Notes under the pieces: model-generated
What the model was told of the DNA's origin: nothing
What the model saw: the letters and a program-made list of their open reading frames with translations, nothing else
Databases searched by the model: none
Made by a program: the position numbers and the translations under genes
Shown here: positions 30,241-46,747 of the stretch, piece by piece
How positions within the stretch are numbered: the first letter of the stretch is position 1
How the letters are laid out: each line of letters begins with the position of its first letter
NCBI GenBank assembly: GCA_016933025.1
Contig: JAFGBT010000006.1
Location: 155,078-219,077, forward strand
Length of the DNA: 64,000 nt
Origin: Spirochaetota bacterium
GTDB lineage: Bacteria; Spirochaetota; UBA4802; UBA5550
Reading direction: 5' to 3'

Positions 30241-30352
30241 TCTTTTCTCTTAAGCCCCCTCCGGGCGTTGCACTGAACGGTTCAACAGGCTTGTCCTGAG
30301 CTTGCCGAAGGGCTCACCACAGGCCTGTCGAAGTGGGGTTTGGGGGGATGGT
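30241..30352. repeat. G/C-tract modular repeat copy R5
   Basis: AAGCCCCCTCCGGG ... GTGGGGTTTGGGGGGATGG modules. Confidence 0.5.
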
Positions 30353-30360
30353 TCTCAGAA

Positions 30361-31518
30361 TCATTTCGGCTTCTTCCTGCCGTGAAGTATCATGTCTGTC
30401 CACCAGCACCCGCCGAATCCTGTGCTGAAGGCGAAATTTACGTCCGGCACCTGCCGGCCCTCGGCCTTACCCATCACCTGCATCGCGGCCTCTGCGCACC
30501 GGATAAGCCCGGTCGCGCCGATCGGGTTGCAGGATATAACGCCGCCGGACGGGTTAATGGGGAGCTCACCCCCCATGTCGGTATTCCCGTCCCAGATGTA
30601 CTGCGGCGCCTCGCCCGGGCCGACGATTCCCATGTCCTCTATCCAGATGAGCCCGCCGAACGAATAGGGCTGGTACAGCTCGATCACGTCCAGCTCCTTC
30701 CGGGGCTCTTTGATGCCGGTTTTCTTCCATATCTCCTGCGCGCCCTCCCGCATGCTGGTGAGGCGGCCGTAATCGGCGTCCCCCAGGTAGGTGTAGGAGT
30801 GACGCGCCGCGGTCGCCCATATCCAATCCGGCTTCGGCGCGATCTTCTCCGCGAGTTCCCCGCTCGCCATGATGACCGCGCAGGCGCCGTCCGTGCGCGG
30901 ACAGACGTCGAGTAGATGTATCGGGTCCGCCAGCATCGGCGACGCCAGGACCTCCTCCAGAGCCACCTCCTTGCGGAGCTGGGCGTGGGGATTGTTCATC
31001 GCATGCCTGCGGTCCCGCACGCTGACGCGCGCGCCGTCCCGATCGGTCGCGCCGTACCGTGCCATGTAGGCCTGCGCCTCGGCGGCAAGGCCCGATATGG
31101 CGCCGGCAAACACCAGGCGGTCCCATATCGGATCGAACGCCGTGGTGATGGCGCCGGTCGTGTCCGACTCTGAATTCTTCTCCCAGCCGATTATCAAAAC
31201 TTTATCGAACATGCCCGACGCCACAAGATGGTACCCGCCGATCGCCACGGTGCACCCGGTCGTCCCGCCGGTCGTGAGCTTGATGATCGGCTTCATGGTC
31301 CCGCCGGAGCCGTCAACGCTCCAGCAGTCGACATAGTTTATTCCCTCGAAATGGTCCATGTTGCCAATGACGACGGCGTCGATATCCTTCATTTTCAGGT
31401 CAGCATCTTGAAGGGCGCGCACCACCGCCTCGTTTATCAGCTCCTGCCCGTTGACGTCGGGGCGATGGCTCTTATGGAACGTCTGGCCGGTTCCTACAAT
31501 CGCAACTCGTTTTCCCAT
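30361..31518 (-). CDS. SCP2-type thiolase-like protein, subfamily A (Cys present at the nucleophile position)
   Basis: TTGGTTGCTVAIGG...LVASGMFD...IGWEK; C-terminal GGVISCNPIGATG. Confidence 0.85.
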   Translation of the reverse strand: MGKRVAIVGTGQTFHKSHRPDVNGQELINEAVVRALQDADLKMKDIDAVVIGNMDHFEGINYVDCWSVDGSGGTMKPIIKLTTGGTTGCTVAIGGYHLVASGMFDKVLIIGWEKNSESDTTGAITTAFDPIWDRLVFAGAISGLAAEAQAYMARYGATDRDGARVSVRDRRHAMNNPHAQLRKEVALEEVLASPMLADPIHLLDVCPRTDGACAVIMASGELAEKIAPKPDWIWATAARHSYTYLGDADYGRLTSMREGAQEIWKKTGIKEPRKELDVIELYQPYSFGGLIWIEDMGIVGPGEAPQYIWDGNTDMGGELPINPSGGVISCNPIGATGLIRCAEAAMQVMGKAEGRQVPDVNFAFSTGFGGCWWTDMILHGRKKPK

Positions 31519-31529
31519 GGCTTCTCCTC

Positions 31530-32672
31530 CTACCTGTCCCCCAGGAGCCAGACGCAGTGCGACTGGCCGCCCAGACCGTTCACCCCGTGGACGAGGCCCG
31601 TTCTCGCCTTCTTCACCTGAAAGCCGCCCGCTTCGCCCCTGATCTGCCTGACCACGGCGGCCATGCTGTACAGACCGGCGGCGATAACCGGATGACCCGA
31701 CAGGAGCCCGCCCGAAGGATTTACCGGAAGCCTGCCGTCAATATTGTACTCCCCTTTTTCAAGATGCCTTCCCGCCGACGATTCATCGGCGAGGCCCATC
31801 TCCTCGAGCCACATGAGCTCCTGGTAGGTAAAGGCGTCGTGTATTTCAGCAACATCGATCTCCGTGCGCGGGTCTTTTATCCCCGCCATCGCGAATGCCT
31901 TCTTCGCCGCCTCGGTGAGCGACCTGGCTCGCGAAAGATCCCGGTCACCGAAGAAAAAAGAGTCGGCGCAGAGAGATACTCCCCTGATCCACACCGGCTT
32001 CTTCCTGAATTTCTTCGCAACCGACTCATGGGCAATGACAACCGCCGCGCACCCGTCTGAGACCGGCGAGCAGTCGAGCTTTCGGAGCGGATCTGCTATC
32101 ATCTCGGAATCCAGGACGTCTTTAACCGTGATATCCATGGGGAGCTGGGCGTGAGGGTTCTTGAGCGCATTGCCGTGGTTCTTCACCGACACCATCGCCG
32201 TCTGCTCGCGCGTTGTCTTCGTCCGGTGCAGGTAGGCATTCGCCTGCATCGCGCACGCGGTAATCATGTCCATACCGAGCATCCGCTCGTAGATCGGGTC
32301 GAAGGCGCAGTTCGTTATCAGGCTCGACACGCTCTCCGATCCCTTGGAATGGCCCGTCACCAGGGTTGTTTTGTACGATCCCGAGAGGCACCTTGCCATG
32401 CCGTAAAAGGCGCCGTACGTTCCGTCGCCCTCCACGCAGGAGACGTTTTTGTGCGCGGCGCCGCTCGCGTCGCCGACGGCCATGCAGGATATCGTTCGCC
32501 CGTCCCAGAAATCGCTTGATGTGGTGACGACATTGTCGATGTCGTCGATGGTCATGCCGGCGTCCTCGAGAGCCCCGTTCACGGCCTGCCATGCCATGTC
32601 GGCAAAGGTCTCACGTACCTTCCTCTTCTCGATCTTGACCGTCCCGACGCCTACTATCGCTGCTCTGTCCAT
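31530..32672 (-). CDS. SCP2-type thiolase-like protein, subfamily B
   Basis: Thiolase fold (YGMARCLSGSYKTTLVTGHSKG...NPSGGLLSGHPVIAAG); 11-nt gap to the subfamily A partner. Confidence 0.85.
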   Translation of the reverse strand: MDRAAIVGVGTVKIEKRKVRETFADMAWQAVNGALEDAGMTIDDIDNVVTTSSDFWDGRTISCMAVGDASGAAHKNVSCVEGDGTYGAFYGMARCLSGSYKTTLVTGHSKGSESVSSLITNCAFDPIYERMLGMDMITACAMQANAYLHRTKTTREQTAMVSVKNHGNALKNPHAQLPMDITVKDVLDSEMIADPLRKLDCSPVSDGCAAVVIAHESVAKKFRKKPVWIRGVSLCADSFFFGDRDLSRARSLTEAAKKAFAMAGIKDPRTEIDVAEIHDAFTYQELMWLEEMGLADESSAGRHLEKGEYNIDGRLPVNPSGGLLSGHPVIAAGLYSMAAVVRQIRGEAGGFQVKKARTGLVHGVNGLGGQSHCVWLLGDR

Positions 32673-32687
32673 GTCTGCGCTCCTTTT

Positions 32688-33155
32688 CTATCGTACCGGC
32701 CTGAAATGGGATATATCGCGGATGGTCCCCTTCCGCTCTTCGGCGAAGACCGCCTTCACGCGCATGCCGATGCTCACGTCTTCCGGCTTAACATCGCCCA
32801 GATAATGGAGCAGGGCCGTGTCCGCGCCGTCCAGCTTCACCAGCCCCCAGATGACCGGCGCCTTCAGCTCCCGGGGAATTGACGCGAATTGCCGCCGGGC
32901 GACCGTGAACGAGAGAAGCGTCCCCTCATCGGATACATCCACCCACTCGGTATCGCCGGTGAAGCAGGCCGGGCAGCTCTTGCGCGGCGGGAGATACGTC
33001 TTCCCGCAGGTCATGCATCTCGTCGCGATGATTTTCTTCTCGTCCCTGAGAGAGATGAAAAACCTGGACGCCGTGTCCCCCGCCCACCATGAATAGGGGA
33101 TATTGATCATGCTCTCGTATACCATCGGCTCAATGCCCTTGAATTGGTCTGTCAT
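32688..33155 (-). CDS. DUF35 family protein (Zn ribbon plus OB-fold)
   Basis: CMTC...CPAC ribbon; OB-fold. Confidence 0.8.
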   Translation of the reverse strand: MTDQFKGIEPMVYESMINIPYSWWAGDTASRFFISLRDEKKIIATRCMTCGKTYLPPRKSCPACFTGDTEWVDVSDEGTLLSFTVARRQFASIPRELKAPVIWGLVKLDGADTALLHYLGDVKPEDVSIGMRVKAVFAEERKGTIRDISHFRPVR

Positions 33156-33175
33156 GATGATTCTCCTTGTAATAC

Positions 33176-33272
33176 CTCACCCCCTTCCCCCTCTCCTCAA
33201 AGGAGAGGGGGAGAAGAAGAATATCGCATTCTTCTCCTCCCCTTCTTCCTGTGGGAGAAGGGGCCGGGGGAT
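33176..33272. repeat. G/C-tract modular repeat copy R6 (CCCTCTCCT CAAA GGAGAGGG and CCCCTTCTTCC TGTG GGAGAAGGGG hairpins)
   Basis: Read directly; same module style as R2 and R7. Confidence 0.5.
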
Positions 33273-33277
33273 GATGT

Positions 33278-34048
33278 CTATCTTCCTATAATATACCGGT
33301 GCGGGTCCACCTGCTCGCGGAGGATCCGCAGTTCATCCGCGTGCGGGGGCTCGGTATCCGTGAGCCTGTCGGCCCACATCAGCTCGAACCCGCAGTTCGC
33401 CTGGATGTCCTCCCGGTCATAGCCGGGATTGACGCTCAGAACCTTCATCCGCTTCGATATCTCATCGAACCCCATGATCGCCATGTTGGTGATGATCCGG
33501 TAGGGCCCGGTACCCTTCGGCAATCCCGCCTCGTAGCGGGAATTCCCGCCCTGCAGATAACCGGGCGAGGTGATGAAATCGCACTTTTCGGTGAATCGCT
33601 TGGCGTCCTGCGGGGTCATCATCATGGTCCTCCAGCAGAGGGAGGCCAGGTCGTTCGCCCCGCCCGATCCCGGAAAGCGGACCTTCGGCCTCGCGTGGTT
33701 ATCGCCGATCATCGTCGAGTTGATGTTGCCGTACATGTCGATCTGCGCGCCGCCCAGGAAGGTGTAGTCCACCATCCCGCGCTGGCATGTCTCCATCACG
33801 TCCGGCATGGAGCTGGCGAGTATCGCCTTGTGAAAGGTCCGCGAATCGCCGACGGATATCGGCATCGAGGGCAAAAACGGCGCCACGCCGCCCGCCTCGA
33901 ACATGATGGTGAGATTGGGCGAATGCGTCTTCTGCGCCAGCATAGCGGCCGCGCACGGGGCGCCGGTGCCGACCACGACCGTCGCGCCGTCCTCCAGGTT
34001 GCGCGCCGCAACGCATATCATCAATTCCATAGGGTTATAGTCTGCCAT
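33278..34048 (-). CDS. CoA-transferase subunit B (glutaconate/3-oxoacid CoA-transferase family)
   Basis: Family I CoA-transferase beta-subunit conservation (GGAQIDMYGNIN, SGGANDLAS). Confidence 0.8.
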   Translation of the reverse strand: MADYNPMELMICVAARNLEDGATVVVGTGAPCAAAMLAQKTHSPNLTIMFEAGGVAPFLPSMPISVGDSRTFHKAILASSMPDVMETCQRGMVDYTFLGGAQIDMYGNINSTMIGDNHARPKVRFPGSGGANDLASLCWRTMMMTPQDAKRFTEKCDFITSPGYLQGGNSRYEAGLPKGTGPYRIITNMAIMGFDEISKRMKVLSVNPGYDREDIQANCGFELMWADRLTDTEPPHADELRILREQVDPHRYIIGR

Positions 34049-34049
34049 C

Positions 34050-35054
34050 TCATTTCTCCTTGTTGTTCGCGACCAGGTTCTCGATGGCGCGAAGCTTCAG
34101 GATCCTTTCGATCCCGCCGTTCAGCTCCAGGTATTCGTAAAAGTCCTTCGTGTCGAGGATTTGCTTCCGGTAAAATTTCCTGAACTCTTCCGGGTCCTTC
34201 TCAACGGTGAGCCACTCCCTCAGGTGCTCCTCGTCGGAAAAATACTCGTAGGGCATGTTGCCGGGGTAGCTCCCGAAGGGGACCTCGACCACTGCGTCGA
34301 CGCACCAGAAGGGAATGAAGGTCGCATGGGGCGTATGCCTGATTTCATCGTTCGGTATGATCCGCTCAGTGGTCAGCACAACCCGCTTCGACGCCCGCGC
34401 AAGGTCCTGGTCGGACACGGACGCGCCTAAAACGCGGGCATTGCCGTACACGTCGCACTCATGCACGTGGATGGCGGCAAAATCCGGATAAAGCGCCGGG
34501 TATGCCGCGTATTTCTGCCCGGTAAAGGGACACAGTATCTCCTTCGCCGCGCTGTAGTTAAAGGTGTCGGTGCCGAGAATGTTGCGCGCCGGCAAAAAAG
34601 AGAGCCCCATCGCCGCCGCCTTGAGCCGCCACGAGAGCGTCGCGTTGGTCCACTCGGTGAGCTTGATATTCCCGCTCTCGACGGCGCGGCGGGAACTCGG
34701 CGAAAGGCCCCGCGCCTCCAGTCCTATGATGTAGGCGATGTCGAGACGGTCGATGCAGCCGCCCCCGACCAGGATCTGCATGTCATGGGTCGAGGTATGG
34801 CCGGCAAAGGCCAGATTTTTCTTCCCCTGACGCGCGATCTCATGAAGAACGGCGGTCGGGATCCTGTTGGCCCCGAACCCGCCGATGGCTATGTAGTCCC
34901 CGTCTTTCAACAGGGTCTTCACGGCCTCCCGCACCGTAGTGACCTTGTTCACCATGGCGCGCGACTTCTGCCTGAAAAATTGACGCGCGGCGTCGGCATC
35001 CGGGTCGGAGAACAACTGGTTCCGGCCTTCCTTCAATTCAACTGGATTGCTCAT
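34050..35054 (-). CDS. CoA-transferase subunit A (GctA-like)
   Basis: GctA-like length and motifs (IAIGGFG...); 1-nt gap to subunit B. Confidence 0.8.
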   Translation of the reverse strand: MSNPVELKEGRNQLFSDPDADAARQFFRQKSRAMVNKVTTVREAVKTLLKDGDYIAIGGFGANRIPTAVLHEIARQGKKNLAFAGHTSTHDMQILVGGGCIDRLDIAYIIGLEARGLSPSSRRAVESGNIKLTEWTNATLSWRLKAAAMGLSFLPARNILGTDTFNYSAAKEILCPFTGQKYAAYPALYPDFAAIHVHECDVYGNARVLGASVSDQDLARASKRVVLTTERIIPNDEIRHTPHATFIPFWCVDAVVEVPFGSYPGNMPYEYFSDEEHLREWLTVEKDPEEFRKFYRKQILDTKDFYEYLELNGGIERILKLRAIENLVANNKEK

Positions 35055-35105
35055 AATTCCGCTCCTTGGCTCTTAAGGTTTTCCCGGTACTCAATCCATT
35101 CCGGA

Positions 35106-36947
35106 TTATTTCTTTTCGAATAAACCATCCGCTGCCTCTTTCGCGTACATCTCTTCGATGAGGTCCCTGTACTTCTCCTGTACCACTTTGCGCTTGACCT
35201 TCAGCGACGGGGTAAGCTCGCCGCCGTTCTGCGAAAACTCGGTCTTGATGATCCTGAACTGCTTTATTCCCTCGTACCTGGCGAGGTGCGAGTTACGCTC
35301 ATCCACGTGCCTCTGCACAACCGATAGAAACTTCTGATCGTCCAGGAGGCCGGCCGGATCCCCGAAGGCGATGCCTTCCGCCTTCGCGATTCGCGCGGCC
35401 TCCTCGATGTTGATGTTGCACAGGCCGGTCAGGTACTTCCTCTTCTCGCCGATGACGATAAACTGCGTGAACAGCGGGTCCGATTTGAAGAGATTCTCGA
35501 TCTTCTGGGGCGCGACGTTCTTCCCGCCCGAGGTGATAATCAGGTCCTTCTTGCGGTCGGTGATGAGAAGGTTCCCCTCGTCATCGAACATGCCGATATC
35601 GCCCGACATGAAATAGCCGTCGGGGGTGAATGCGTCTTTCGTCTCGTCCGGAAGCTTCCAGTAGCCCCTGATGACATTCCCTCCCTTGATTAAAATCTCC
35701 CCGTCGTCCGCAATTTTGATATCCTCTCCCGGAATCGGCTTACCGGTGGTCCCGATCCGGTAATCGGCGAGGGACTGCATGGTGGCCGGCGCGGTCGTCT
35801 CGGTCATGCCGTACCCCTGGATGACGGTGATGCCGGCGGCGTTGAAGAAGCGGATGATCTCCTCGGCCGTGGGAGCGCCGGACGCGGTCATCCAGGTGAC
35901 CCGCCCTCCCAGCTTGTCCTGGAGCTTCTTGAAAATCATGGCGTAGGCGATCCTGTATTTCAGCTTCAGCCAGAATGGTATGCGCCTGTGCATCTCCCGG
36001 CGCCTGCTGATCCTGCTGCCGACCTTCTGTCCCCAGTAGAACACTCTCTGCTTGAAGGCGGACTGCTCCTGCACCTGCGCCATGATCTTCTGGTAGACCT
36101 TCTCGCAGACGCGGGGCACGGCCAGGATCATGGTGGGCCGCCTCTCCTCGAAGTCGGCCAGCAGGGTGTCGATGCTCTCGGCGTACGAGGCCGTGATGCC
36201 GCAGTACATGCCGTAGAAGTGCCCTGCGATCCGCTCGAACACGTGTGAGAGCGGGAGGAAGGGAACGGTGCAGTCCGTATCCGAGGCAAAATGCGGCCGG
36301 ATCGCGTCGAGCGACTGGACCACCCAGAAAATGTTCCCATGACTGATCATCGCGCCCTTGGGGAGTCCGGTCGTCCCAGAGGTATAGACCAGGGTCGCCA
36401 GGTCGTCCGGACCAACATCGGCCGCCAGCTTCTCGAACAGGTTCCGGTCCGCCTCCTGTTGTTTGCGTCCCAGCTCCATCAGCTCATTGAAGGAAATCAC
36501 CTTCGGGTTCGACCTGTCCGCGTCGCCATCCTCCATGACGACAATCTTCTCCAGTTTCGGGCATTTATCCGCTATCTCGAGTATCTTGGTCAGCTGGTTC
36601 TTATTTTCAGATATGATTATTCTTGATTCCGAATTGTTGAGGATGTATTCTATCTCCTCGGCCACCAGCGTCGGATATACCGGTATGAGGACGCCGCCGA
36701 TTCCCATGATCCCCATGTCGGAATACAGCCACTCGAGGCGGTTCTCGGAGAGAAGAGCCACCATGTCCCCCTTCCGTATGCCGAGATAATACAGGCCGAG
36801 GCCGGTCGCGCGCGCCCGTTCATAATATTCGTTCCAGGAAGCGCCGTGCCAAACGCCTTTCAGTTTTTTCTCTATCGCAAGTCTGTCGCCGTATTTCTCA
36901 ACGCGATTGCGGAAAACATCATTGACGGTCCTTTCTGCTGATTCCAC
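35106..36947 (-). CDS. long-chain-fatty-acid--CoA ligase (AMP-binding)
   Basis: AMP-binding motif TSGTTGLPKG; 613 aa, FadD-like. Confidence 0.85.
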   Translation of the reverse strand: MESAERTVNDVFRNRVEKYGDRLAIEKKLKGVWHGASWNEYYERARATGLGLYYLGIRKGDMVALLSENRLEWLYSDMGIMGIGGVLIPVYPTLVAEEIEYILNNSESRIIISENKNQLTKILEIADKCPKLEKIVVMEDGDADRSNPKVISFNELMELGRKQQEADRNLFEKLAADVGPDDLATLVYTSGTTGLPKGAMISHGNIFWVVQSLDAIRPHFASDTDCTVPFLPLSHVFERIAGHFYGMYCGITASYAESIDTLLADFEERRPTMILAVPRVCEKVYQKIMAQVQEQSAFKQRVFYWGQKVGSRISRRREMHRRIPFWLKLKYRIAYAMIFKKLQDKLGGRVTWMTASGAPTAEEIIRFFNAAGITVIQGYGMTETTAPATMQSLADYRIGTTGKPIPGEDIKIADDGEILIKGGNVIRGYWKLPDETKDAFTPDGYFMSGDIGMFDDEGNLLITDRKKDLIITSGGKNVAPQKIENLFKSDPLFTQFIVIGEKRKYLTGLCNINIEEAARIAKAEGIAFGDPAGLLDDQKFLSVVQRHVDERNSHLARYEGIKQFRIIKTEFSQNGGELTPSLKVKRKVVQEKYRDLIEEMYAKEAADGLFEKK

Positions 36948-37014
36948 GGAACACCTCCTGCATAAAATATTATGCCTGATTCAGACTGTTATATTTCAGT
37001 TCAATATGTATACC

Positions 37015-37054
37015 GCGGCGCCTCCCTGTTTTTTGGGAGACAGGGAGGCGCCGC
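37015..37054 (-). terminator. stem-loop GCGGCGCCTCCCTG(N12)CAGGGAGGCGCCGC downstream of the crotonase gene
   Basis: 14-bp perfect stem; weak U-tract. Confidence 0.4.
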
Positions 37055-37064
37055 ATAACATACC

Positions 37065-37844
37065 TTATCTCCCCTTGAAACTCGGCCTCCGCTTCTCTAA
37101 AAACGCGGCAATCCCCTCTTTCTTGTCCTCGCTCTCCGCAAGCCCTCCGAAGAGCCGGCTCTCCAGCTTCAACCCGTCCGCCAGTGGCATCTTCCCGCCG
37201 ACCAGGACAGCCTCGATGACGGCGCTCACGGCGAGCCGGCCCTTGAACGAAAGGTCCTTCGCGAACTTCATGGCCTCCTCCATGAGGGCGGCATGGGGGA
37301 CGACGCGGTTGACCAGCCCGATCCTCTCGCACTCGGACGCCGGTATGAATTTACCGGTGAGCATGATCTCAAGCGCCCGCGCCGGCCCCAGGAGCCGCGC
37401 CGCCCGCTGGGTTCCGCCGAACGCCGGCATGATGCCGAGCAGGATCTCCGGCAGGCCCATCTGCGCCTGGTCGCCGATGAACCGCATGTGGCATGCCATG
37501 GCAAGCTCGGTGCCGCCCCCCAGACAGAGGCCGTTGATCGCGGCGATTACAGGCTTTCGAAGGTTTTCTATCAGATTTATAATCCCCTGGGCCTCTGACG
37601 TGAGCGCCTCGCCCTTCTCGCGCGTGTCGACTTCCCGCACCTTGTTGACGTCGGCCCCGACGATAAATGTCGGGCCCTCGCCGGTGATTACCACGACCTT
37701 CACCGAATCGTCGGCGGCGATCTTCTTCATCGAGCTTTCAAGCTGGCGCATGGTCTCCTCATCCAGCGCGTTCATCGGGGGGTTGTTGATCTTCAGAAGG
37801 GCAACGCCCCGCTCGTTGACTTCGTAATAGCATTTGTCAGCCAT
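37065..37844 (-). CDS. enoyl-CoA hydratase/isomerase (crotonase family)
   Basis: AAINGLCLGGGTELAMACHMRF; paralog of the 3049-3825 gene. Confidence 0.85.
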   Translation of the reverse strand: MADKCYYEVNERGVALLKINNPPMNALDEETMRQLESSMKKIAADDSVKVVVITGEGPTFIVGADVNKVREVDTREKGEALTSEAQGIINLIENLRKPVIAAINGLCLGGGTELAMACHMRFIGDQAQMGLPEILLGIMPAFGGTQRAARLLGPARALEIMLTGKFIPASECERIGLVNRVVPHAALMEEAMKFAKDLSFKGRLAVSAVIEAVLVGGKMPLADGLKLESRLFGGLAESEDKKEGIAAFLEKRRPSFKGR

Positions 37845-37865
37845 ACAATCTCTCCTCGCTTAAAC

Positions 37866-37905
37866 ACCCTCACCCCTGCCCCTCTCCCACGGGGAGAGGG
37901 TACAC
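37866..37905. repeat. G/C-tract repeat copy R7 (CCCTCACCCCTGCCCCTCTCCCACGGGGAGAGGG)
   Basis: Near-identical to the middle module of R2. Confidence 0.4.
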
Positions 37906-37917
37906 CGTGGCGTGAGG

Positions 37918-39345
37918 TCATTTCTTCCTCAATCCCATGATCGCGCGGGCCTCGTCGCAGGTGGCAATCGGCCTGCCGAGACATTCGGCGACCCCGACCG
38001 CCACCTCGACCAGCTCGTAGCTGCCCTTGGCCAGCTCGCCGTTCGGCATCCTGATATTGTCCTCCAGGCCGACCCGCATGTGCCCGCCGAGGAGGCACGA
38101 CTGCATGATGCACGGAAACTCGTCGGTGCCGACGCCGCAGGTGGTGAAGTTCGCCTTCGGCGGGAGCGCGTTCATCATCGCTATGAAGGTCTCGGCCCTG
38201 AAGGCCTGGCCGCCGGCCACGCCCCAGACGAAATTGAAGTTCATCGGATCGGTGAAGAAACCCTGCTTCGAGATCAACATGGTGTTGTCGAGCCCCCCCA
38301 TGTCATAGCACTCGATCTCCGGCTTCACGCCGTTCTCCTCCATGGCCTTGCCGAAATCCTGCAGCATGGTAAAGGTGTTCTCGAACACGTAGTCGATGAA
38401 GATCTTTCCGGTCTTCCGGTCGATGATACTGAAATTCATCGTATTGGTGTTCAGAGACGCCATCTCGGGCTTGATCTCCACGATCTGGCTGATGCGCTGC
38501 TCGGCGGTCTTGCCCATGCCGACGGCCGAGCTCAGGTTCACGATCAGCTCCGGGCTCTTCTGCTTGATGGCGTCGTGGGTCGCCCGGATCCTGTCGATCT
38601 CGTGCGTCGCGAAGCCGTTGTCCATGCGCGCGTGCACGTGCACCATGGCCGCGCCCGCCTTCCAGCACTTGTGCGCCTCTTCCGCGAACTCCGCCGGCGT
38701 GTATGGGACGCTCGGGTTCTGGTTCTTCATGGTCGCCGCGCCGGTAAGGGCGGCGGTGATTATTACTGGCTTTGACATATCCGGTTTTCCTCCCCTTCGT
38801 TTTTCCTGAGTTTCAGGCTCGTCCGACGGAACCCATTGTTTACGCAACTTGCTGCGCTCGTGTACCGACAGCGTTTCAACCGCCGGCCTGAAGTGATCGA
38901 TGTCGAGAATGGTGCTCGTCGTTTTCTCGGCGAACACCGCCTCAACCTTCATCCCTATCTTGACGTCCTCTATCTTACACTCTTCGACAATATGCAAGAA
39001 GGGCGTGTCCGCGCCTTCCAGCTTGATGAGAGCGAGGACGAACGGCGCCTTTCGCGGCAGGTGCTTGTCGTCGTAGCGCACCACCGTGAAGTTCGTCACC
39101 GTTCCGCTTGAGCCCACTTCGACCCAGTTGTCCCGTATATCCGTTAAATCCTTGTCGCAGACCTGCCGCGGCGGCAGGTACACCATGCCGCAGGCCGGGC
39201 ACTTCACTCCCATTATCTTCTTCTTGTCCCGGATCGTCGTGATGAACTTGCTGCCGACGCGTCCGGCGAAATAGCTGTACGGGAGCGCCATCTTGCCTTC
39301 AATGATGTAGCTGTCTTCATATCCCTTTATTTGCTTATCTATCAT
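37918..39345 (-). CDS. fusion protein: N-terminal DUF35 (Zn ribbon/OB-fold) domain and C-terminal BKACE/DUF849 (3-keto-5-aminohexanoate cleavage enzyme-like) domain
   Basis: Single uninterrupted frame (the ORF track reports 37918-39453). N-half GVKCPACGMVYLPPRQVC plus OB-fold; C-half starts MSKPVIITAALTGA. Start chosen at ATG 39345 with TAAGGAG RBS, 11 nt after the upstream stop. Confidence 0.6.
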   Translation of the reverse strand: MIDKQIKGYEDSYIIEGKMALPYSYFAGRVGSKFITTIRDKKKIMGVKCPACGMVYLPPRQVCDKDLTDIRDNWVEVGSSGTVTNFTVVRYDDKHLPRKAPFVLALIKLEGADTPFLHIVEECKIEDVKIGMKVEAVFAEKTTSTILDIDHFRPAVETLSVHERSKLRKQWVPSDEPETQEKRRGGKPDMSKPVIITAALTGAATMKNQNPSVPYTPAEFAEEAHKCWKAGAAMVHVHARMDNGFATHEIDRIRATHDAIKQKSPELIVNLSSAVGMGKTAEQRISQIVEIKPEMASLNTNTMNFSIIDRKTGKIFIDYVFENTFTMLQDFGKAMEENGVKPEIECYDMGGLDNTMLISKQGFFTDPMNFNFVWGVAGGQAFRAETFIAMMNALPPKANFTTCGVGTDEFPCIMQSCLLGGHMRVGLEDNIRMPNGELAKGSYELVEVAVGVAECLGRPIATCDEARAIMGLRKK

Positions 39346-39356
39346 GTCCCGGCTCC

Positions 39357-40550
39357 TTACTCGTCGATTTCGAAATATTTGATGTCCCAGATATCGCCGG
39401 CCCGTTTTTCCTCCCAGACCGGACGAACGCGCGTTCCCTTCTTCTCGTTCCATCCCATCTCGATCTTTTCAATCTGGTCCTTCCGTATAAAATGAGGGAG
39501 GGTCTCGTTGCCCTTGCATCCGTCCAGGAGAATCATGATCGACCCGTAGGGCGTCTCTCGCGCCACTCCGGTCAGCGGGTCGGGAAGAGCGTAGTAGACG
39601 ACATCCATGTACCGGACTTCTCCCTTCGGCCCGACCTCTACAAATTCAGATACGCGTACCCTGCACTCGGCGCACATCTCCCGCGGCGGGAGCTGTATGC
39701 GGCCGCACTTCGGGCACCGGTTCCCGTATATCTTTTTATCCTTCAGTCCCTTGAGGAACCTGCCCATGACCGGGCCGGTCGCGTACTTCTGGTTGACCGA
39801 GATAATCTTCTTCAACACCAGAAGCTCCTGCTCGGGTACGGCGCCGCCCATCGGGTCCTTGTATTTCTCGAACATGACCGGCCATTTCGTCTGAATGAGG
39901 TTGATATCGCCTTTGGCCGATCCCTTGCCCGCCGCCAGCAGGGTCTGCGCGTCTATCTTACCGAGGATAAAATCGACATAGTCCTTCGCGTCGTTGAATT
40001 CGAGGGTCACGGTCGGATTGCCCTCGATGGTCGTCGCAATCGTGCACTTCTTGTCCTTGACGGATACCGTCCACGTGCCGCCGTCCGGGCCGCCGAGATC
40101 GTAGGCGAACGACGCGTCCACGTCCTCCGCCTCCTCGGGCTTGAATCGCGACACGATCGTCCCGAACATGTCCTCTATGTACTCCCGGGTCGACATCTCC
40201 TTCTTCGCGATGACGAACTTGCGAAACATCCTGCCGGTCTTGCCGAACGCGCCCATGTCGCCCTCAACCTTGACCTTGCCTCCCATGAAGGCGTTCGTCG
40301 CGTCGACCTTGCCGGTGTTCACGCCGACGAAGGTCTCGCCGTCGGCGCTCATCGTCGCGACGCATCCGGTTATTCCGTCGACCCTCTCAACCGCCGCGAG
40401 CGTTCCGTTATACACGGTCACCTTCCATTTTCCTTCCCCGGCGATATCGTATCCGTACGAGGCCGTTACGCCCTGCGCGCCCTCGGGACGGAACCGTTCC
40501 TGCATGGTATTGAATATATCTTCAACTTTAATTCCCCAGTATTCTGCCAT
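39357..40550 (-). CDS. fusion protein: two tandem SCP2 sterol-carrier domains and C-terminal DUF35 domain
   Basis: Two AFMGGKVKVEGDM-type SCP2 signatures, then NRCPKCGRIQLPPREMCAECR plus OB-fold; AGGAGG RBS at the trimmed start. Confidence 0.65.
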   Translation of the reverse strand: MAEYWGIKVEDIFNTMQERFRPEGAQGVTASYGYDIAGEGKWKVTVYNGTLAAVERVDGITGCVATMSADGETFVGVNTGKVDATNAFMGGKVKVEGDMGAFGKTGRMFRKFVIAKKEMSTREYIEDMFGTIVSRFKPEEAEDVDASFAYDLGGPDGGTWTVSVKDKKCTIATTIEGNPTVTLEFNDAKDYVDFILGKIDAQTLLAAGKGSAKGDINLIQTKWPVMFEKYKDPMGGAVPEQELLVLKKIISVNQKYATGPVMGRFLKGLKDKKIYGNRCPKCGRIQLPPREMCAECRVRVSEFVEVGPKGEVRYMDVVYYALPDPLTGVARETPYGSIMILLDGCKGNETLPHFIRKDQIEKIEMGWNEKKGTRVRPVWEEKRAGDIWDIKYFEIDE

Positions 40551-40560
40551 GATTGTCCTC

Positions 40561-41760
40561 CTACCAGTTGAGTTCCTTCTCGAGCATCGTGAGCACGGTC
40601 CACATCGTGCCGCCAAAGCCCGAGGCCAGCGCGTGGTTTACCGGGGTCGGGATCTGGTGATCGCCCGCGCCGCCCCGTACCTGAAGGGCGGCCTCGGCGA
40701 CCCGTACCAGCGCAGTCGCTCCGATCGGGTTCGACGCGATGACCCCGCCCGACGGGTTGATCGGCAGCTTCCCGCCTATCATGACCTCTTTGTCCTCAAT
40801 CAGCCTGAGGTGCTCATCGCCCTTGAGATCGAAAAAGTCCCTGAGCCAATCTATGGCCCACCACGATGCGGGATCGTACATCTCGAACACGTCAAAATAA
40901 TTCAACGGGTCCTTGATGTCATTCCGTTTGAAAAGCTGTTCCGCCGCGAACTTGTGGCTCTTGGTAACGGGGAACGCCCTGTTGTATCCGAAGATGGTGA
41001 ATATCTCTTCCTTGTGGATGGCGATATGGTCCCGAACCCAAACCGGCCGCCGTGACAGCTCCTTCGCCTTTTTCTCGGAGGCGTATATGACCGCGCACGC
41101 TCCGTCCGACTGAGAGCACATCTCGATCAGCTTCAGATCGCCGACGAGCTTCGGGGACGACTTGATCAGGTCGTCGATCTGGCTGAAGTCGAGGCCGAAG
41201 GCGCGGTGCGCGTTCGGGTTAAGGCACGCGTGCTTGTCCATTATGATGCGGTATGTCAGGGAGACCCTGTTGGCCCTCTCGAGGCCGAATTCCCGCGAGA
41301 CATCGTACGCCGATGACCCGGTCAGGGCCCCCGCCTGGATCTTGCGGAACCAGAGCGGGTCCGCCATGTTGGTGATGCCGGCTGTGGTGTGCCCCTCCTG
41401 CAGTTTCTCGAAGCCGATGGCCATGACGATGTCGTACATGCCCGACGCCACCAGGTTGTCCGCGGCGCAGGATATGGTTGCGCCCGACGTGCCGCCCGTT
41501 GTGATCCTGATGCTGTCCTTGCCGTAGGCGCCTGTTCCCAGCATGTGCCACATGTCCGGCTGGTGAATCATCTCGAAGAGCTCCATATTGCCGTGAACGA
41601 CACAGTCGACGTCATTCATCGTCAGGTTCGCGTCTTGCAGCGCGAGGCTGACCGCCTCGTATATCATCTCCGGCTGGTTCACGTCCTCGCGGTGGCTCGA
41701 ATGCTTTGTCTGCCCCACGCCTATTATACCGACGTTTCTGTTCTTTTTTCTGTGTGCCAT
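40561..41760 (-). CDS. SCP2-type thiolase-like protein, subfamily A (Ala at the position of the Cys in paralog 30361)
   Basis: TTGGTSGATISCAADNLVASGMYD...IGFEKL; C-terminal GGVIASNPIGATA. Confidence 0.85.
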   Translation of the reverse strand: MAHRKKNRNVGIIGVGQTKHSSHREDVNQPEMIYEAVSLALQDANLTMNDVDCVVHGNMELFEMIHQPDMWHMLGTGAYGKDSIRITTGGTSGATISCAADNLVASGMYDIVMAIGFEKLQEGHTTAGITNMADPLWFRKIQAGALTGSSAYDVSREFGLERANRVSLTYRIIMDKHACLNPNAHRAFGLDFSQIDDLIKSSPKLVGDLKLIEMCSQSDGACAVIYASEKKAKELSRRPVWVRDHIAIHKEEIFTIFGYNRAFPVTKSHKFAAEQLFKRNDIKDPLNYFDVFEMYDPASWWAIDWLRDFFDLKGDEHLRLIEDKEVMIGGKLPINPSGGVIASNPIGATALVRVAEAALQVRGGAGDHQIPTPVNHALASGFGGTMWTVLTMLEKELNW

Positions 41761-41772
41761 TGTTCTTCCTCC

Positions 41773-42918
41773 CTAAGCTTCCATTACGATAACGGCCTGG
41801 TGCTGGCCGGCGCCGCCGGTCGCGGCCTGGGCGACGGCCCTCTTCACTCCCTTGACCTGGCGGTCGCCCGCCTGACCTGAAAGCTGATAGTAGCATTCGA
41901 TAGCCCGCGCCGCCCCCCCGAGGAGGAGCGGATTGCCGTTGAGATGGCCGCCAGACAGGTTGACATTGAACTTTTCCATACCGCCGTCATCAATCCACTT
42001 ACCGCCCTTCCCTTCATCGGCAATACCGACCCCCTCAGCCCACATCGGGAGCTGGTACGCCGCGTGATCGCTCAGCTCGAAGAGCTGGACGTCCTTTCGC
42101 GGGTCCTTGATGCCCGCCCTGGCGTAGGCCCTCTGCGCGGCTTGTTTCAGCGAGAAGTTCGAGCAAAGATCCCGGTCGCCTATGAAATACCGGTCCATGC
42201 AGCTGCCGTATCCGGTGAGCCAGACCGGTTTTTTGGTGAATTCCTTGACGCGTTCCTCGCAACAGAGGAGTATCCCGTACGCCCAGTCGGTGACCGGATA
42301 CACGTGAAGTTCGCGCAGCGGGTCCGCATACATCGGCGAATTCATCACCTCTTTCTCATCCACTTGTCTGTTCTCCCGCGCGTAGGGGTTCTTCTTAGCG
42401 TTTTTCCTGGAACGGACGACTATCTTCGCCAGGTGCTCCTCGGTAACGCCGGACTTCTCCATGTACTCCCGGGCCTGCAGGGCGTCGACGTTCTGAAAGT
42501 CCATCCCGACCGGCCGGCAGTAAAATGGATCGCAGGCGAGATTGGTCGCCATCCGCCTGCTCTCTCCCTGAGACTCCTTGCAGTGCCCCATGAAGAGTAT
42601 CACATCGTCATGGCCGCTCAGGATACAGGCCATAGCGTACCCGAGCCCGTTGATGCTCTCCTGAGCCATCTTCTCTTCGCCCCTGAAGTGGGCGCCCACG
42701 ACGTCAGTCACGCCGTTGTCTGATATGGTCCGCGCATCGAACACGTCATCGGAGCATGTTATAATGTTTCTGATACCCCTTTCCATGTCAAAGGTGACGC
42801 CGGTCTGCTCCATGATAGGCTCGAAGCACTCGAGCAGCATGTTCTGGAAGCGCATGTGCGCGTATTCCGGCTCGTTCTTGACCTGCGCCACTGCGCATAC
42901 CGCTATTCTTTTACTCAT
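41773..42918 (-). CDS. SCP2-type thiolase-like protein, subfamily B
   Basis: YAMACILSGHDDVILFMGHCKESQGES aligns with the 31530 paralog; GAGGAGG RBS. Confidence 0.85.
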   Translation of the reverse strand: MSKRIAVCAVAQVKNEPEYAHMRFQNMLLECFEPIMEQTGVTFDMERGIRNIITCSDDVFDARTISDNGVTDVVGAHFRGEEKMAQESINGLGYAMACILSGHDDVILFMGHCKESQGESRRMATNLACDPFYCRPVGMDFQNVDALQAREYMEKSGVTEEHLAKIVVRSRKNAKKNPYARENRQVDEKEVMNSPMYADPLRELHVYPVTDWAYGILLCCEERVKEFTKKPVWLTGYGSCMDRYFIGDRDLCSNFSLKQAAQRAYARAGIKDPRKDVQLFELSDHAAYQLPMWAEGVGIADEGKGGKWIDDGGMEKFNVNLSGGHLNGNPLLLGGAARAIECYYQLSGQAGDRQVKGVKRAVAQAATGGAGQHQAVIVMEA

Positions 42919-43019
42919 TACCAATCCTCCTCTCAATTCTTTTACGGCAACGGATCATGATAATACCACCTCGCATAACAGATTTGACATGGGCTTTGAT
43001 ATTGCCGCCTCGTGAATCT

Positions 43020-43568
43020 TCAGACATAACAGTTCCAGAATTTTCCATTCTTAATGGCTTTTAATATGGCGTCCTTTTCGCGCTTCGAGTCGAGCTCTAT
43101 CCATGCCCGCCCGATGCCGATGAGCGTATGCGAATCGTCCGATGCGATCTTGGGATACCGGATGTTCAGCGATTCAAAAATTGTGTCCCGGAAGCCTTTT
43201 GTCGTGATCTCGACGGCGTCAAGGGGGTACATCTTCTCGAGCTCGGCCAGGCGTTCAAGAACCTGTTCCGGCGTTAGATCGTATTCGCCGATGTGATTGA
43301 ATATGTGGAGCACCTCTTCATCGCCCTCTATCTTTGACACGTGGATGTATCCCTTCACAAATACCGTCAGCTCAATCCCGTGAAAAATAATCATGTCGGT
43401 CTTGACCTGTGAATACAGATCGCGGTAATTCGGTTTCACCAGGTAGTCGTGGTCTGTAAAGGCGATAAAATCATACCCTTTTGATTCATAGGCATTGACC
43501 ACCTGCTGCGGCGTCAGCTTTCCGTCAGAGCAGGTCGTGTGAGTATGTAGACATCCTTTTAATAGCAT
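43020..43568 (-). CDS. small PHP-domain phosphoesterase
   Basis: HTHTTCSDG PHP signature; lower local GC. Confidence 0.7.
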   Translation of the reverse strand: MLLKGCLHTHTTCSDGKLTPQQVVNAYESKGYDFIAFTDHDYLVKPNYRDLYSQVKTDMIIFHGIELTVFVKGYIHVSKIEGDEEVLHIFNHIGEYDLTPEQVLERLAELEKMYPLDAVEITTKGFRDTIFESLNIRYPKIASDDSHTLIGIGRAWIELDSKREKDAILKAIKNGKFWNCYV

Positions 43569-43896: not shown

Positions 43897-44538
43897 TCAC
43901 TCCTTGTTTTCAAGGGATTTTTTCAAATCCTTTCCCATCTGATCAAGTATGTATTCCCTGCACCGGTTCAGGGTCATCGAATCGGTGACCTCATACGAGC
44001 GCTCGGGGCGGTCGTTCTTTATGGTCAGGATCGTGCCGCCGCTCGAGGTTGACACGAGGCGGGCCTGCACCTGGAAATAAAAGAATTTTTTCTTCTTCCT
44101 CTTCTTGACCTTTTCGGTCTCCTTCGTAACGGGATTCTTCACGTAATCGATGTATTCAACCCACTTCGTCTCTTCGCTGTTCCGGGTCACGTTTCCGAAC
44201 AGAAGCGCCTGCGCGCCGGTCAGGCGGCCGATCTCCTCGGAGTCCGATACCACCCCGGACTGGGAGCGTTCGATCTCCCTGAGTATCGTCCTCAGTTTCG
44301 CCCGCTCGACAACGTTCTTTCCCGCATCGATGAAGCTGCTCCGGAAGGCATCCTCGCACTCGACAGCGATCGCCCTCGGTATCCCCGGGGCCTTGTCAAA
44401 ATCCATTATCGCGAGCGTTTCGACCCTGTTCATTTCCGACTTGTTCAGCGAAATCTTTGAGGTCGAACAGGACATCATGATGATTGAAATGACCGCCGCG
44501 CCCGTGATAACGCCAATGACACACATTACTCTTTTCAT
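43897..44538 (-). CDS. CsgG-like (COG1462-type) lipoprotein
   Basis: Lipobox IMMSCS; LAIMDFDKAPG...VERAKLRTILREIERSQSG...ALLFGNV pattern; KKRKKKK stretch. Confidence 0.5.
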   Translation of the reverse strand: MKRVMCVIGVITGAAVISIIMMSCSTSKISLNKSEMNRVETLAIMDFDKAPGIPRAIAVECEDAFRSSFIDAGKNVVERAKLRTILREIERSQSGVVSDSEEIGRLTGAQALLFGNVTRNSEETKWVEYIDYVKNPVTKETEKVKKRKKKKFFYFQVQARLVSTSSGGTILTIKNDRPERSYEVTDSMTLNRCREYILDQMGKDLKKSLENKE

Positions 44539-44687
44539 ATATTATGCTCCTGGTACCTGTGGCCGCGCCCGGTAGCCGCGGCATATACTATGCCTGACAT
44601 GGCATGCACGCATTGCAGCAATGATAGCAGCGAAACAATTCCTGTCAATTATAATGCGTGCGGGGTTATAATTATCATGACCGCCCT

Positions 44688-46205
44688 TCAGGGTCCGAGA
44701 CGCGCGCTGATGCCGTCGGCCACGTGCGTGGAGAGCGCCATGATGGTAATCTGGGGATTCACCCCGAGCGACGTGGGGACGATGCTGCCGTCGGCGACAT
44801 ACAGGTTCTTCACCTCGAAACTTTCGCCGCTCCCGTCCACGGCGCCCCGTGACGGATCGGCCGCCATGCGGCAGGTCCCCAGGGGATGGAAGGCCATGGT
44901 CTCTATCTGGCTCGGCTTGATACGGGTCTCCAGAAGCCTGTCCGCGTCAGCGGCCGAATGGAGTACGGGCATTTTCGCTATGGCGGTGTAGACAAGCCTG
45001 GCCCCGGCCGCGAAGAAAATCTTCGAGAGATAGGCGATCCCCCGCTTGAGCTTGTCGGCATCGGCCTGCTTGATTAAATAGGTCGCGAAGATGCCCGCGT
45101 TCTTCCGGGTATCAAATCCCTTAAGCACCCTCCCCTCGGTCTCATCGTGGGCCATTATGCCGAAGACCGCCAGGCTGTTGTACTTGAGCGCCATCTCCTT
45201 GTGCTCGTACCCCACCCCCGGGAGCGCCGCCAGGAGGAGCGAGGGATGTACCATCACCCCCTCCATCATGATCCCCTCTCCCTCGAAATCGGGGATGTAG
45301 GCGCCCTGCGATACGCCCTTCCAGCCCTCGACGGTCTCGTCCATCAGGGCGACCACCCTGCCCGCCGGATGGATCTGCAGGTGCCTTCCGATGTGCCTGT
45401 TCTTCAGACCGCTCCATTTAAGGAACGACGGCGTGATCATCGATCCGCAGGAAACCACGACGACGCGCGACTTCACGCTGACGCGTCGTGTCCGCCTCCC
45501 CGTTTTCGGCTCCACCACCGAGCCTTCAACGCCCGCCGCGACGCCGCCGCTGACAATCACCCGCTCCGCCCTGCAGTTGGCATAGACCCGCGCCCCCGCC
45601 TTCACGGCCAGGGGGACATAGGTTACGTTCACGCTCTGCTTGGCGTTCTCCGGGCATCCGAACTGGCAGGGTCCGCATCCCTTGCAATCCTTAACGTTAT
45701 GTCTGAGGGGCAGGCAGGTATACCCCAGTTTATCGCAACCGCGCTTTACGATACTCGCGTTATTGCCCAGGATATCCCAGGTGAGCTCGGTGACATTGAT
45801 GATTTTCTCCACCCTGTCGAAGTAGGGACCAAGAGTATCCTCGGACATGGCTCCGAGTCCAAGCTCGTCGCGCCACCGGTCAAGGACCGGACCGGGCGTC
45901 CTGAAGCAGGTTGCCGAGTTCACCGTGCTGGTCCCGCCTATGCACTTCCCCAGGGTAATGGATATGAAGGGATTCCCCAGCGTCCCGGTTGTGCCGCCGC
46001 CGCGGTACATTGCCGACATCCCGCTTGCCGGTCTGCCGTCCCAGTCGTCCACGGTGAAGTGCCCCCCCTCCTCCAGAAGCACCACCGAATGGCCCTTCTC
46101 CGCGAGCTCCTTCGCGACCACCCCGCCGCCCGGCCCGCTGCCTATGACGCATACATCGCAGGATTCATCGATATCGCCGGTGTAGTCTTTATATGTCTTT
46201 ATCAT
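44688..46205 (-). CDS. GMC-family FAD-dependent oxidoreductase (large subunit)
   Basis: CVIGSGPGGG dinucleotide motif; GMC C-terminal region (HPLGTCRM...NLYVADGSIVP). Confidence 0.85.
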   Translation of the reverse strand: MIKTYKDYTGDIDESCDVCVIGSGPGGGVVAKELAEKGHSVVLLEEGGHFTVDDWDGRPASGMSAMYRGGGTTGTLGNPFISITLGKCIGGTSTVNSATCFRTPGPVLDRWRDELGLGAMSEDTLGPYFDRVEKIINVTELTWDILGNNASIVKRGCDKLGYTCLPLRHNVKDCKGCGPCQFGCPENAKQSVNVTYVPLAVKAGARVYANCRAERVIVSGGVAAGVEGSVVEPKTGRRTRRVSVKSRVVVVSCGSMITPSFLKWSGLKNRHIGRHLQIHPAGRVVALMDETVEGWKGVSQGAYIPDFEGEGIMMEGVMVHPSLLLAALPGVGYEHKEMALKYNSLAVFGIMAHDETEGRVLKGFDTRKNAGIFATYLIKQADADKLKRGIAYLSKIFFAAGARLVYTAIAKMPVLHSAADADRLLETRIKPSQIETMAFHPLGTCRMAADPSRGAVDGSGESFEVKNLYVADGSIVPTSLGVNPQITIMALSTHVADGISARLGP

Positions 46206-46291
46206 AATCTATAATCCTTTTGATAATTAAATCTTAAAGTATAAGAGATAAAATATATAGAGCATGGCGGATGCATCCGCCGCTATATTTT

Positions 46292-46747
46292 TTATTTTTT
46301 CCAGGTACACCCGTGCTCGTACCCGGTAAGGCACGCCCGTTCGTCGCTCTCGTAAAACGTCAGCATGGTTATCAGCTTGAGCAGAAGCATGATCATCCGC
46401 TTGTAAAAGAAGCGGCTCTTCTCCATCGATTCAAGAAAGCGGATCCTCTTTTCCTCGCTTAACCGCGTGAACACCTTTCCATGCCTGGTTAACGCGCCGT
46501 ACTGAACGTATTTCAGCATCACCGGGAAGAGCTTCCTGATCGATGGGTCATAGCTCATGATGAGCTCGCCGGCGCGCGGCAGGAGGTCATAATCGGCGGC
46601 GCCGGGACCGAACGCGCCGCCCCGCGGGATTATTGTGTCCATCACCGACCTGAGTATCTCGCCGCTCCCACCACGGAGCACGCCCGGCCCTGCGATCCCT
46701 TCTGTTCTCTTCATACCGATATCCCTCCGCGAGATTCTTGAACGCAC
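46292..46747 (-). CDS. gluconate 2-dehydrogenase subunit 3-like small subunit of the GMC oxidoreductase
   Basis: LRSVMDTIIPRGGAFGPGAADYDLLPRAGELI pattern typical of small subunits paired with GMC enzymes; start uncertain. Confidence 0.55.
   Translation of the reverse strand: MRSRISRRDIGMKRTEGIAGPGVLRGGSGEILRSVMDTIIPRGGAFGPGAADYDLLPRAGELIMSYDPSIRKLFPVMLKYVQYGALTRHGKVFTRLSEEKRIRFLESMEKSRFFYKRMIMLLLKLITMLTFYESDERACLTGYEHGCTWKK

Follow-up and report, generated by a model that had tools for sequence, protein, structure and literature searches.

Gene organization of the B-A-DUF35 module

We analyzed a 64,000-nucleotide stretch of DNA from a Spirochaetota bacterium (contig JAFGBT010000006.1 of assembly GCA_016933025.1, positions 155,078 to 219,077), referred to as the window, which carries a pair of adjacent genes for thiolase-like proteins, designated A and B, next to genes for DUF35 proteins. 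All genes described here lie on the minus strand. The B gene (41773-42918) encodes a thiolase-fold protein of 381 amino acids in which Pfam recognizes Thiolase_C_1 only, and it is followed in transcription order by the A gene (40561-41760; thiolase fold, 399 amino acids, Thiolase_N and Thiolase_C_1), a gene for a 397-residue SCP2-SCP2-DUF35 protein (39357-40550; Pfam SCP2 and zf-ChsH2), and a gene for a 475-residue DUF35-BKACE fusion (37918-39345), recognized by Pfam and by alignment to Kce 2Y7D. The gaps between these four genes measure 10-12 nt, and each contains a GGAGGA ribosome-binding site. Upstream of B lies the gene for a 182-residue PHP-domain protein (43020-43568; Pfam PHP and PHP_C), which occupies the position directly upstream of B in most related loci as well.

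Downstream of the fusion gene, the run continues with an enoyl-CoA hydratase (ECH) of the crotonase family (37065-37844; Pfam ECH_1), a long-chain-type acyl-CoA ligase (35106-36947; Pfam AMP-binding, with the NCBIfam FadD11-like model below its cutoff), and the alpha (34050-35054) and beta (33278-34048) subunits of a glutaconate-CoA-transferase-like enzyme. The genes from 29752 to 43568 form a tight operon. A paralogous module spanning 29752-33155 closes the run in the order DUF35-B'-A'-DUF35, and comprises a free DUF35 gene (32688-33155), the paralogs B' (31530-32672) and A' (30361-31518; 385 amino acids), and a second DUF35 gene after A' (29752-30240).

The relationship between the two pairs, proposed earlier from the sequence alone, was borne out. 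A and A' share 42% identity (E=5e-88), B and B' share 37% (E=2e-80), and both resemblances are far beyond chance. Since A and B are only 22% identical to each other, they represent two distinct subunit types, each present twice and in both cases ordered B then A.

The two DUF35 fusion proteins adjoining the pair, also pointed out in that reading, are real. The SCP2-SCP2-DUF35 protein begins with two domains of the sterol-carrier/lipid-binding type, after which come a zinc ribbon (CxxC...CxxC) and an OB fold; its C-terminal 147 residues match the full length of the free DUF35 encoded at 32688-33155 (30% identity, E=2e-17). The DUF35 part of the fusion protein is 47% identical to the same free DUF35. 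Its second CxxC is degenerate (CPAC...CDKD, where the free protein reads C..C...CPAC), so the zinc ribbon (39150-39345) has only three Cys ligands, which recalls the C3H1 zinc ribbon variant of Shy. The C-terminal 280 amino acids of the fusion align over the full length with Kce 2Y7D (E=2e-49) as a TIM barrel that keeps both the Zn-binding HxH (VHVH/IHLH) and the E-D-N residues (GLEDN/GFEDN). The protein scores 272 bits against the BKACE equivalog models, below the cutoff of 382 bits, and differs from the BKACE family by its N-terminal DUF35, a fusion that we did not find described in the literature searched.

Register of the nucleophile position

The sequence-only reading had singled out a match between A and A' in which a Cys of A' is replaced by Ala in A, and had implicitly taken this column for the thiolase nucleophile. 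The strings that it quoted are encoded at this locus on the minus strand, and the match is as described: TTGGTSGATISC of A lies over TTGGTTGCTVAI of A' without gaps, Ala94 stands opposite Cys89, and the Cys noted four residues further on is Cys98. The identification of the column as the nucleophile did not survive. In the HMMER alignment, NNNCSTGSTALF of the zebrafish SCP2-thiolase 6hsj lies over the same segment of A, again without gaps, which places the catalytic Cys on Gly90 and puts Ala94 and Cys98 at +4 and +8 relative to the Cys column. The Cys of the nucleophile motifs NNNCSTG (6hsj) and EAACASG (6esq, 7yvy) fell opposite Gly90 in A and Gly85 in A', four residues upstream of the flagged column. 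A MAFFT alignment was built from 6hsj, 7yvy and 6esq (rebuilt from HMMER output), five window proteins, and 87 family representatives; here the three solved thiolases and the Cys-bearing relatives all put their Cys in the Gly90 column.

In the B-type proteins, the nucleophile loop is shortened by a 3-residue deletion; the MAFFT column holds Ser88 in B and Gly in B', and the HMMER alignment of B' gives Glu or a gap at this position. With Gly at the nucleophile position of A and A', and with this position lost or replaced in B and B', none of the subunits is capable of thiolysis. A third paralog in the window (23328-24764) reads KTGGA in place of NNNCS and nonetheless keeps HDAF and the His.

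Conservation among orthologs

Orthologs were counted as tblastn matches with a query coverage of at least 85%. Among 99 orthologs of A, the residues T87, T88, G89, G90, T91, G93, the stretch E293-M-Y-D-P297, and N344-P345 are invariant or nearly so. Position 94 is variable (Ala in 59, Gly in 23, Ile in 7, Thr in 5, Ser in 4, and Gln in 1) and is never Cys, and position 98 is Cys in 86, Ala in 8, and Gly in 5. In the 24 orthologs of A', YQPY and NP are invariant or nearly so, and position 89 is occupied by Cys (17), Ser (6) or Ala (1). The Cys89/Ala94 column as the nucleophile was ruled out by the three independent alignments together with this variability. A shift of the nucleophile to Cys98, which had been offered as an alternative, failed because 13 of the 99 orthologs have Ala or Gly there and because its partners are also gone: the thiolase catalytic His and the acid/base Cys are replaced in A by Asn344 and Pro297, both invariant. 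Accordingly, A has the thiolase fold and lacks the nucleophilic Cys, the catalytic His, and the acid/base Cys.

The substitutions go together. Across 35 aligned relatives the set is Gly/Tyr/Pro-or-Ala/Asn, as opposed to Cys/His/Cys-or-Ala/His in true thiolases. The earlier suggestion that A is an inactive or altered-chemistry subunit therefore stands insofar as A is altered relative to thiolases; A is not a degenerate copy of an active A', since both share the Gly/Tyr/Pro/Asn signature.

The B family (87 orthologs) has its own invariant or nearly invariant residues, E81, K83, Q86, D284, N329-P330, and Q372. Its HDCF-equivalent motif is variable (S/N/C-D-H/A/Q), the window copy having SDHA and GNP. 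Among the four proteins only B' keeps the GHP motif, whose His is present in 30 of 31 orthologs; its HDAF motif has His in the window copy and Tyr (YDAF) in 27 of the 31. The idea that B' might be a genuine thiolase partner on the strength of HDAF and GHP is weakened by the missing Cys and by Tyr instead of His in those 27 orthologs.

In 58 strictly scored modules, A was the most conserved protein. It was more conserved than B in 53 of them, with a mean identity of 80.1% as compared to 76.2%, and 64.4% for the SCP2-DUF35 protein.

Structural models

Thiolases carry the nucleophile at the N-terminal end of helix N-alpha3. In the AlphaFold model of A (mean predicted local distance difference test, pLDDT, 91.3; predicted template modeling score, pTM, 0.93), strand 82-85 leads into helix 89-105, so that the helix begins at Gly89/Gly90; Ala94 lies one turn and Cys98 two turns into it. 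Cys98 as a shifted nucleophile was ruled out by this two-turn depth and by the ortholog variability. The structural check suggested in the sequence-only reading consequently placed neither Cys98 nor Cys89 of A' at the canonical site. Judging from alignments and model, the flagged Ala/Cys difference falls at a variable, non-catalytic position and is not meaningful. In the model of B (pLDDT 89), the corresponding helix is shortened to residues 88-100.

In Foldseek searches, the highest TM-scores against solved thiolases were 0.89 for A and 0.91 for B. The best structural matches were to the archaeal thiolase 6ESQ/6ET9 (0.87-0.91), a DUF35-associated enzyme to which B alone scored 0.89-0.91; further matches were SCP2 thiolases, BbsB, PhlC, and TbSLP, and the retro-aldolases Ltp2 and Sal scored 0.71-0.83. 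The modeled folds indicate that A and B belong with the DUF35-associated branch of the thiolase superfamily. Since both match thiolases and, at lower scores, aldolases, the fold alone cannot separate a thiolase from an aldolase.

Synteny and distribution

A scan of species-representative genomes yielded 80 loci, to which contig look-ups added four, giving 84 loci. The order B-A-(SCP2-SCP2-DUF35) was kept in all loci that extended far enough to reveal it, and two DUF35-containing genes followed A in every locus. There are thus two DUF35 domains per B/A gene pair, and their physical association with A and B is predicted. Two DUF35 domains per heterodimer would fit the alpha-beta-beta-alpha arrangement of Sal-Shy and Ltp2-ChsH2, here in an asymmetric form.

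The fourth gene differed between lineages. In the 58 scored modules it was a DUF35-BKACE fusion in 44, found in Spirochaetota/Leptospirales and Smithella/Syntrophales, and a plain DUF35 in 12, found in Desulfobacterales and some others, where the module is present as a tandem duplication with no BKACE within 10 kb. A metagenome-assembled genome (MAG) of Desulfosudis oleivorans is among the hosts of the duplicated module. In Desulfobacterales and relatives (L054-L084), one tandem copy stands by a hydratase of the MaoC type and the other by one of the crotonase type, a difference that may reflect opposite stereochemistry.

Recurrent neighbors of the module were pairs of acyl-CoA dehydrogenases (ACADs), ECH or MaoC hydratases, and ligases, and the ECH downstream of the module was retained in many loci. 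No recurring 3-hydroxyacyl-CoA dehydrogenase was found among the module neighbors in the 84 loci. Steroid operons with aldolases have the same neighbor pattern, with a hydratase and no recurring 3-hydroxyacyl-CoA dehydrogenase.

B is identical to an NCBI protein from a "Spirochaetes bacterium" MAG, which identifies the window as part of a Spirochaetes MAG. The family is large, with 3404 proteins matching A at E<=1e-10, and it is very strongly conserved, being shared at 70-90% identity by Spirochaetota, Smithella/Syntrophales, and Desulfobacterales; the module is widespread in anaerobic bacteria. The whole 13-gene operon shows 73-94% protein identity between MAGs of Spirochaetota/Leptospirales and those of Smithella/Syntrophales (L005-L049). 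Since this is far above the expectation for the distance between phyla, it is likely that the operon was spread by horizontal transfer (or that MAGs were mis-binned).

Other genes of the window

The CoA-transferase subunits have 1POI as their best PDB match, with E=4e-39 for alpha against chain A and E=1e-45 for beta against chain B, and the catalytic Glu is kept (MFEAGG opposite IVESG). The pair is nearest to GctAB (1POI), then to AibAB and IpdAB. An IpdAB-like ring hydrolase or AibAB-like decarboxylase was discarded for this pair because GctAB fits far better and the catalytic Glu has been retained. The likeness to GctAB hints at a dicarboxylate substrate of the glutaconate or glutarate type.

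After the second DUF35 gene of the paralogous module come a SpoIIE-like gene, a TetR gene (28185-28811), and a second gene set resembling the steroid igr set (22726-28163), which consists of an ACAD pair (25754-28163), a MaoC hydratase pair (24855-25690), the third thiolase-like protein (Cys-less, 478 amino acids), and a weak DUF35 (22726-23316); a further ACAD follows (21430-22587). Upstream of the operon, 43897-46747 encodes a GMC-family FAD oxidoreductase, a gluconate-2-dehydrogenase-subunit-3-like protein, and a CsgG-like lipoprotein, a trio also present in the two closest Spirochaetota loci (L005, L020). A thiolase-like gene with HDAT and GHP motifs runs from 63347 to beyond 64000, so that its N-terminus lies outside the window; a short-chain dehydrogenase/reductase (62531-63343) and an acyl-CoA ligase (60903-62510) lie directly downstream of it in transcription order. 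This gene may encode the canonical thiolase of the region.

Comparison with known systems

The closest known architecture is that of Ltp3 and Ltp4 of actinobacterial sterol catabolism, which are defined genetically. Work by Wilbrink in 2012 reportedly identified them as aldol-lyases for C24-branched sterol side chains. In a Streptomyces locus (L085, AP018517.1), a ligase, an ECH, a double-DUF35 protein, a B-type protein (349 amino acids), and an A-type protein (388 amino acids) are encoded in this order, which we take to be the layout of mycobacterial fadD19-echA19-Rv3521-ltp4-ltp3, as in the gene order and sizes of M. tuberculosis. The Streptomyces proteins pass the NCBIfam cutoffs of PRK07798, PRK07799 (and almost reach that of EchA19), PRK07937, and PRK08313, the A/B-type pair with 706 and 563 bits for PRK08313 and PRK07937, respectively. 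PRK08313 is also the best NCBIfam model for A and A', at 258 and 363 bits against a cutoff of 514, and B and B' match PRK07937 ("lipid-transfer protein") at 150 and 189 bits against a cutoff of 419. Ltp3 and Ltp4 have been described as aldol-lyases that are indispensable for C24-branched sterol side chains (PMC6273163).

Like the window pair, Ltp3 and Ltp4 are encoded by adjacent diverged genes, the short (B/Ltp4-type) before the long (A/Ltp3-type). Two DUF35 domains, an ECH, and a ligase go with the pair in both cases. The window pair differs in that identity is about 31-37%, and its DUF35 domains are on separate proteins, fused to two SCP2 domains and to BKACE, whereas Streptomyces has a single 313-residue double-DUF35 protein upstream of the pair. 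In addition, Ltp3/Ltp4 are actinobacterial, whereas the hosts of the window type are strict anaerobes (Spirochaetota, Smithella, Desulfobacterales). By these comparisons, the window pair appears to be a distant relative of Ltp3/Ltp4 with the same architecture, and not a member of those subfamilies.

With Ltp2-ChsH2 and Sal-Shy (6OK1, 9MYR), the window system shares the SCP2-thiolase fold, Gly at the former nucleophile site, Tyr as the first residue of xDxx, a DUF35 partner (here predicted), and a place after a hydratase with no dehydrogenase step. Ltp2 and Sal are homodimers, whereas the window has an obligate A/B gene pair; the general acids are Cys in Sal and Tyr344 in Ltp2, where A has Pro297 and Asn344.

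In the archaeal acetoacetyl-CoA thiolase/HMG-CoA synthase/DUF35 complex (6ESQ/6ET9) and in PhlABC/MucABC, a thiolase-fold dimer likewise works with a DUF35 that recruits a second enzyme, and consecutive reactions share a CoA site. Those complexes hold a Cys-dependent thiolase or acyltransferase, whereas the window subunits lack the Cys, and the enzyme recruited in the window, BKACE, is instead covalently fused to DUF35. Parallels for the DUF35 clamp are Ltp2-ChsH2, Sal-Shy, BbsAB, and the archaeal thiolase/HMGCS complexes. Eukaryotic SCPx also combines a thiolase-fold unit with SCP2 for bulky or branched lipophilic acyl-CoAs; it is a Cys/His thiolase with SCP2 fused in cis, in contrast to the SCP2 domains of the window, which would act in trans from a DUF35 anchor on a Cys-less heterodimer. 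In the literature searched, we found no paper on both DUF35 and BKACE and none on the B-A-SCP2/DUF35 module.

Proposed function

We propose, with a probability of about 0.5, that B and A form a heteromeric Cys-less retro-aldolase (C-C lyase) clamped by two DUF35 domains. In CtSal, Gly occupies the position of the nucleophilic Cys of thiolases, hence the enzyme is unable to thiolyse (PMC12329534). The catalytic base is the Tyr of YDCY in Sal and of YDHF in Ltp2, a motif whose counterparts are HDCF in SCP2 thiolases and YDCF in TbSLP (PMC12329534). A has the invariant Gly90 at the former nucleophile site and Tyr295-Asp296 in a YDxx motif, the equivalence of Tyr295 with the Tyr of Sal and Ltp2 being drawn from the HDCF alignment (YDPA of A over HDCF) and the motif statement in PMC12329534. 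Because Gly90 and Tyr295 match two hallmarks of these retro-aldolases, the Gly backbone where the Cys used to be and the Tyr base of YDxx, A is likely the catalytic subunit. B would complete the dimer and probably shape or bind the substrate, and the DUF35 domains would clamp the heterodimer, one carrying two SCP2 domains and the other fused to BKACE.

In the pathway that we envisage, the ligase or the CoA-transferase would activate an acid, an ACAD would introduce a double bond, and ECH would add water to give a beta-hydroxyacyl-CoA that cannot be oxidized at its beta-carbon. A/B would then split this compound by retro-aldol cleavage, releasing acetyl-CoA and a carbonyl compound. Most speculatively, the substrate might be 3-hydroxy-3-alkylglutaryl-CoA, which would yield a beta-keto acid and acetyl-CoA, both substrates of the tethered BKACE, which could convert them into an acyl-CoA and acetoacetate. 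That B/A, SCP2-SCP2-DUF35, and DUF35-BKACE form one machine of this kind, in which a lipophilic 3-hydroxy-3-alkylglutaryl-CoA (or a similar tertiary beta-hydroxyacyl-CoA) is cleaved independently of Cys and the products are handed to BKACE, is a doubtful extension of the retro-aldolase proposal. For anaerobic limonene degradation, a route with a different enzyme has been proposed that leads from 3-substituted glutaryl-CoA to a tertiary alcohol and on to its cleavage by a lyase (PMC12583861).

Several observations count against the retro-aldolase and its extension. A lacks the known aldolase general acids: its Pro297 takes the place of Cys in Sal and of His in Ltp2, and its Asn344 that of Ltp2 Tyr344, the latter correspondence being taken from spacing only. 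The residues recognized in A thus do not make up a complete catalytic set, and if it is an aldolase, its apparatus must be a further variant. The invariant polar residues of B (E81, K83, Q86, D284, N329, Q372) could form a site of their own, and we infer the formation of a heteromer from one feature, the invariant adjacency of the two genes. By fold, A and B are nearer to the archaeal and SCP2 thiolases than to Ltp2/Sal, and their scores fall well short of the cutoffs that NCBIfam sets for its Ltp3-like and Ltp4-like models. The window contains no carboxylase or obvious source of 3-alkylglutarate. Finally, many lineages carry the module with no BKACE within 10 kb, so coupling to beta-keto acids cannot be its core function.

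Among the alternatives, another Cys-independent reaction, such as decarboxylation of malonyl- or beta-carboxy-acyl-CoA, thioester hydrolysis, or a biosynthetic aldol or Claisen condensation, seems rather unlikely. AibAB, which are relatives of the CoA-transferase pair, are decarboxylases. B has invariant acidic and basic residues of its own that could serve such a reaction, and TbSLP, which has YDCF and belongs to the same clade, shows weak malonyl-CoA decarboxylase activity (PMC12329534). On the other hand, CtSal has no decarboxylase activity (PMC12329534), the operon context is catabolic (TetR, ligases, ACADs, hydratases), and there are no conserved acyl carrier protein, reductase, or carboxylase genes nearby.

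It is unlikely, too, that the A/B heterodimer is a non-catalytic scaffold or delivery platform that binds acyl-CoA and, with SCP2, a lipophilic substrate, and leaves the chemistry to BKACE, ECH, and the CoA-transferase. The canonical catalytic residues are gone from both A and B, no general acid was identified in A, and DUF35/thiolase-fold assemblies are known to recruit other enzymes (bioRxiv 10.1101/2024.07.05.601840). However, TTGGT, YDP, and NP in the active-site loops do not vary between phyla, and no other protein of the module is as conserved as A; many lineages with B-A-SCP2/DUF35-DUF35 have no fused enzyme, and the Cys-less relatives Ltp2 and Sal are real enzymes.

That A is a true thiolase subunit, either with its nucleophile shifted to Cys98 in ISC or as the inactive copy of an A' that uses Cys89, is highly improbable: the frequency of these Cys residues among the orthologs and the clearly thiolase-like fold speak for it, but Cys98 gives way to Ala or Gly in 13 orthologs and Cys89 to Ser or Ala in 7, and they sit 8 and 4 residues into a helix that starts at residue 89. 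Moreover, Asn without exception replaces the His of GHP, Pro likewise replaces the acid/base Cys of HDCF, and the canonical site always holds Gly, the residue that the aldolase CtSal has there.

Implications

Proteins of this family are publicly annotated as "acetyl-CoA C-acetyltransferase" or "thiolase family protein," a label of acetyl-CoA C-acetyltransferase or thiolase that the sequence rules out. The B-A-DUF35 system is best read as a conserved variant of the DUF35-clamped Cys-less thiolase-fold lyases. The DUF35-BKACE fusion extends an emerging rule, according to which DUF35 staples consecutive CoA-dependent enzymes onto thiolase-fold dimers. The hosts of the module play key roles in digesters and in anoxic habitats affected by hydrocarbons. 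If A and B are a heteromeric retro-aldolase, these anaerobes would have a non-oxidative route for beta-branched or bulky lipids, and the pair would lend itself to study as a model of the Ltp3/Ltp4 class that takes part in sterol catabolism. If the coupling to BKACE also holds, the complex would constitute an undescribed ATP-free bypass of beta-branches in isoprenoid, sterol-like, and ring-cleavage-derived lipids, and would provide the first mechanistic model for the Ltp3/Ltp4 class.

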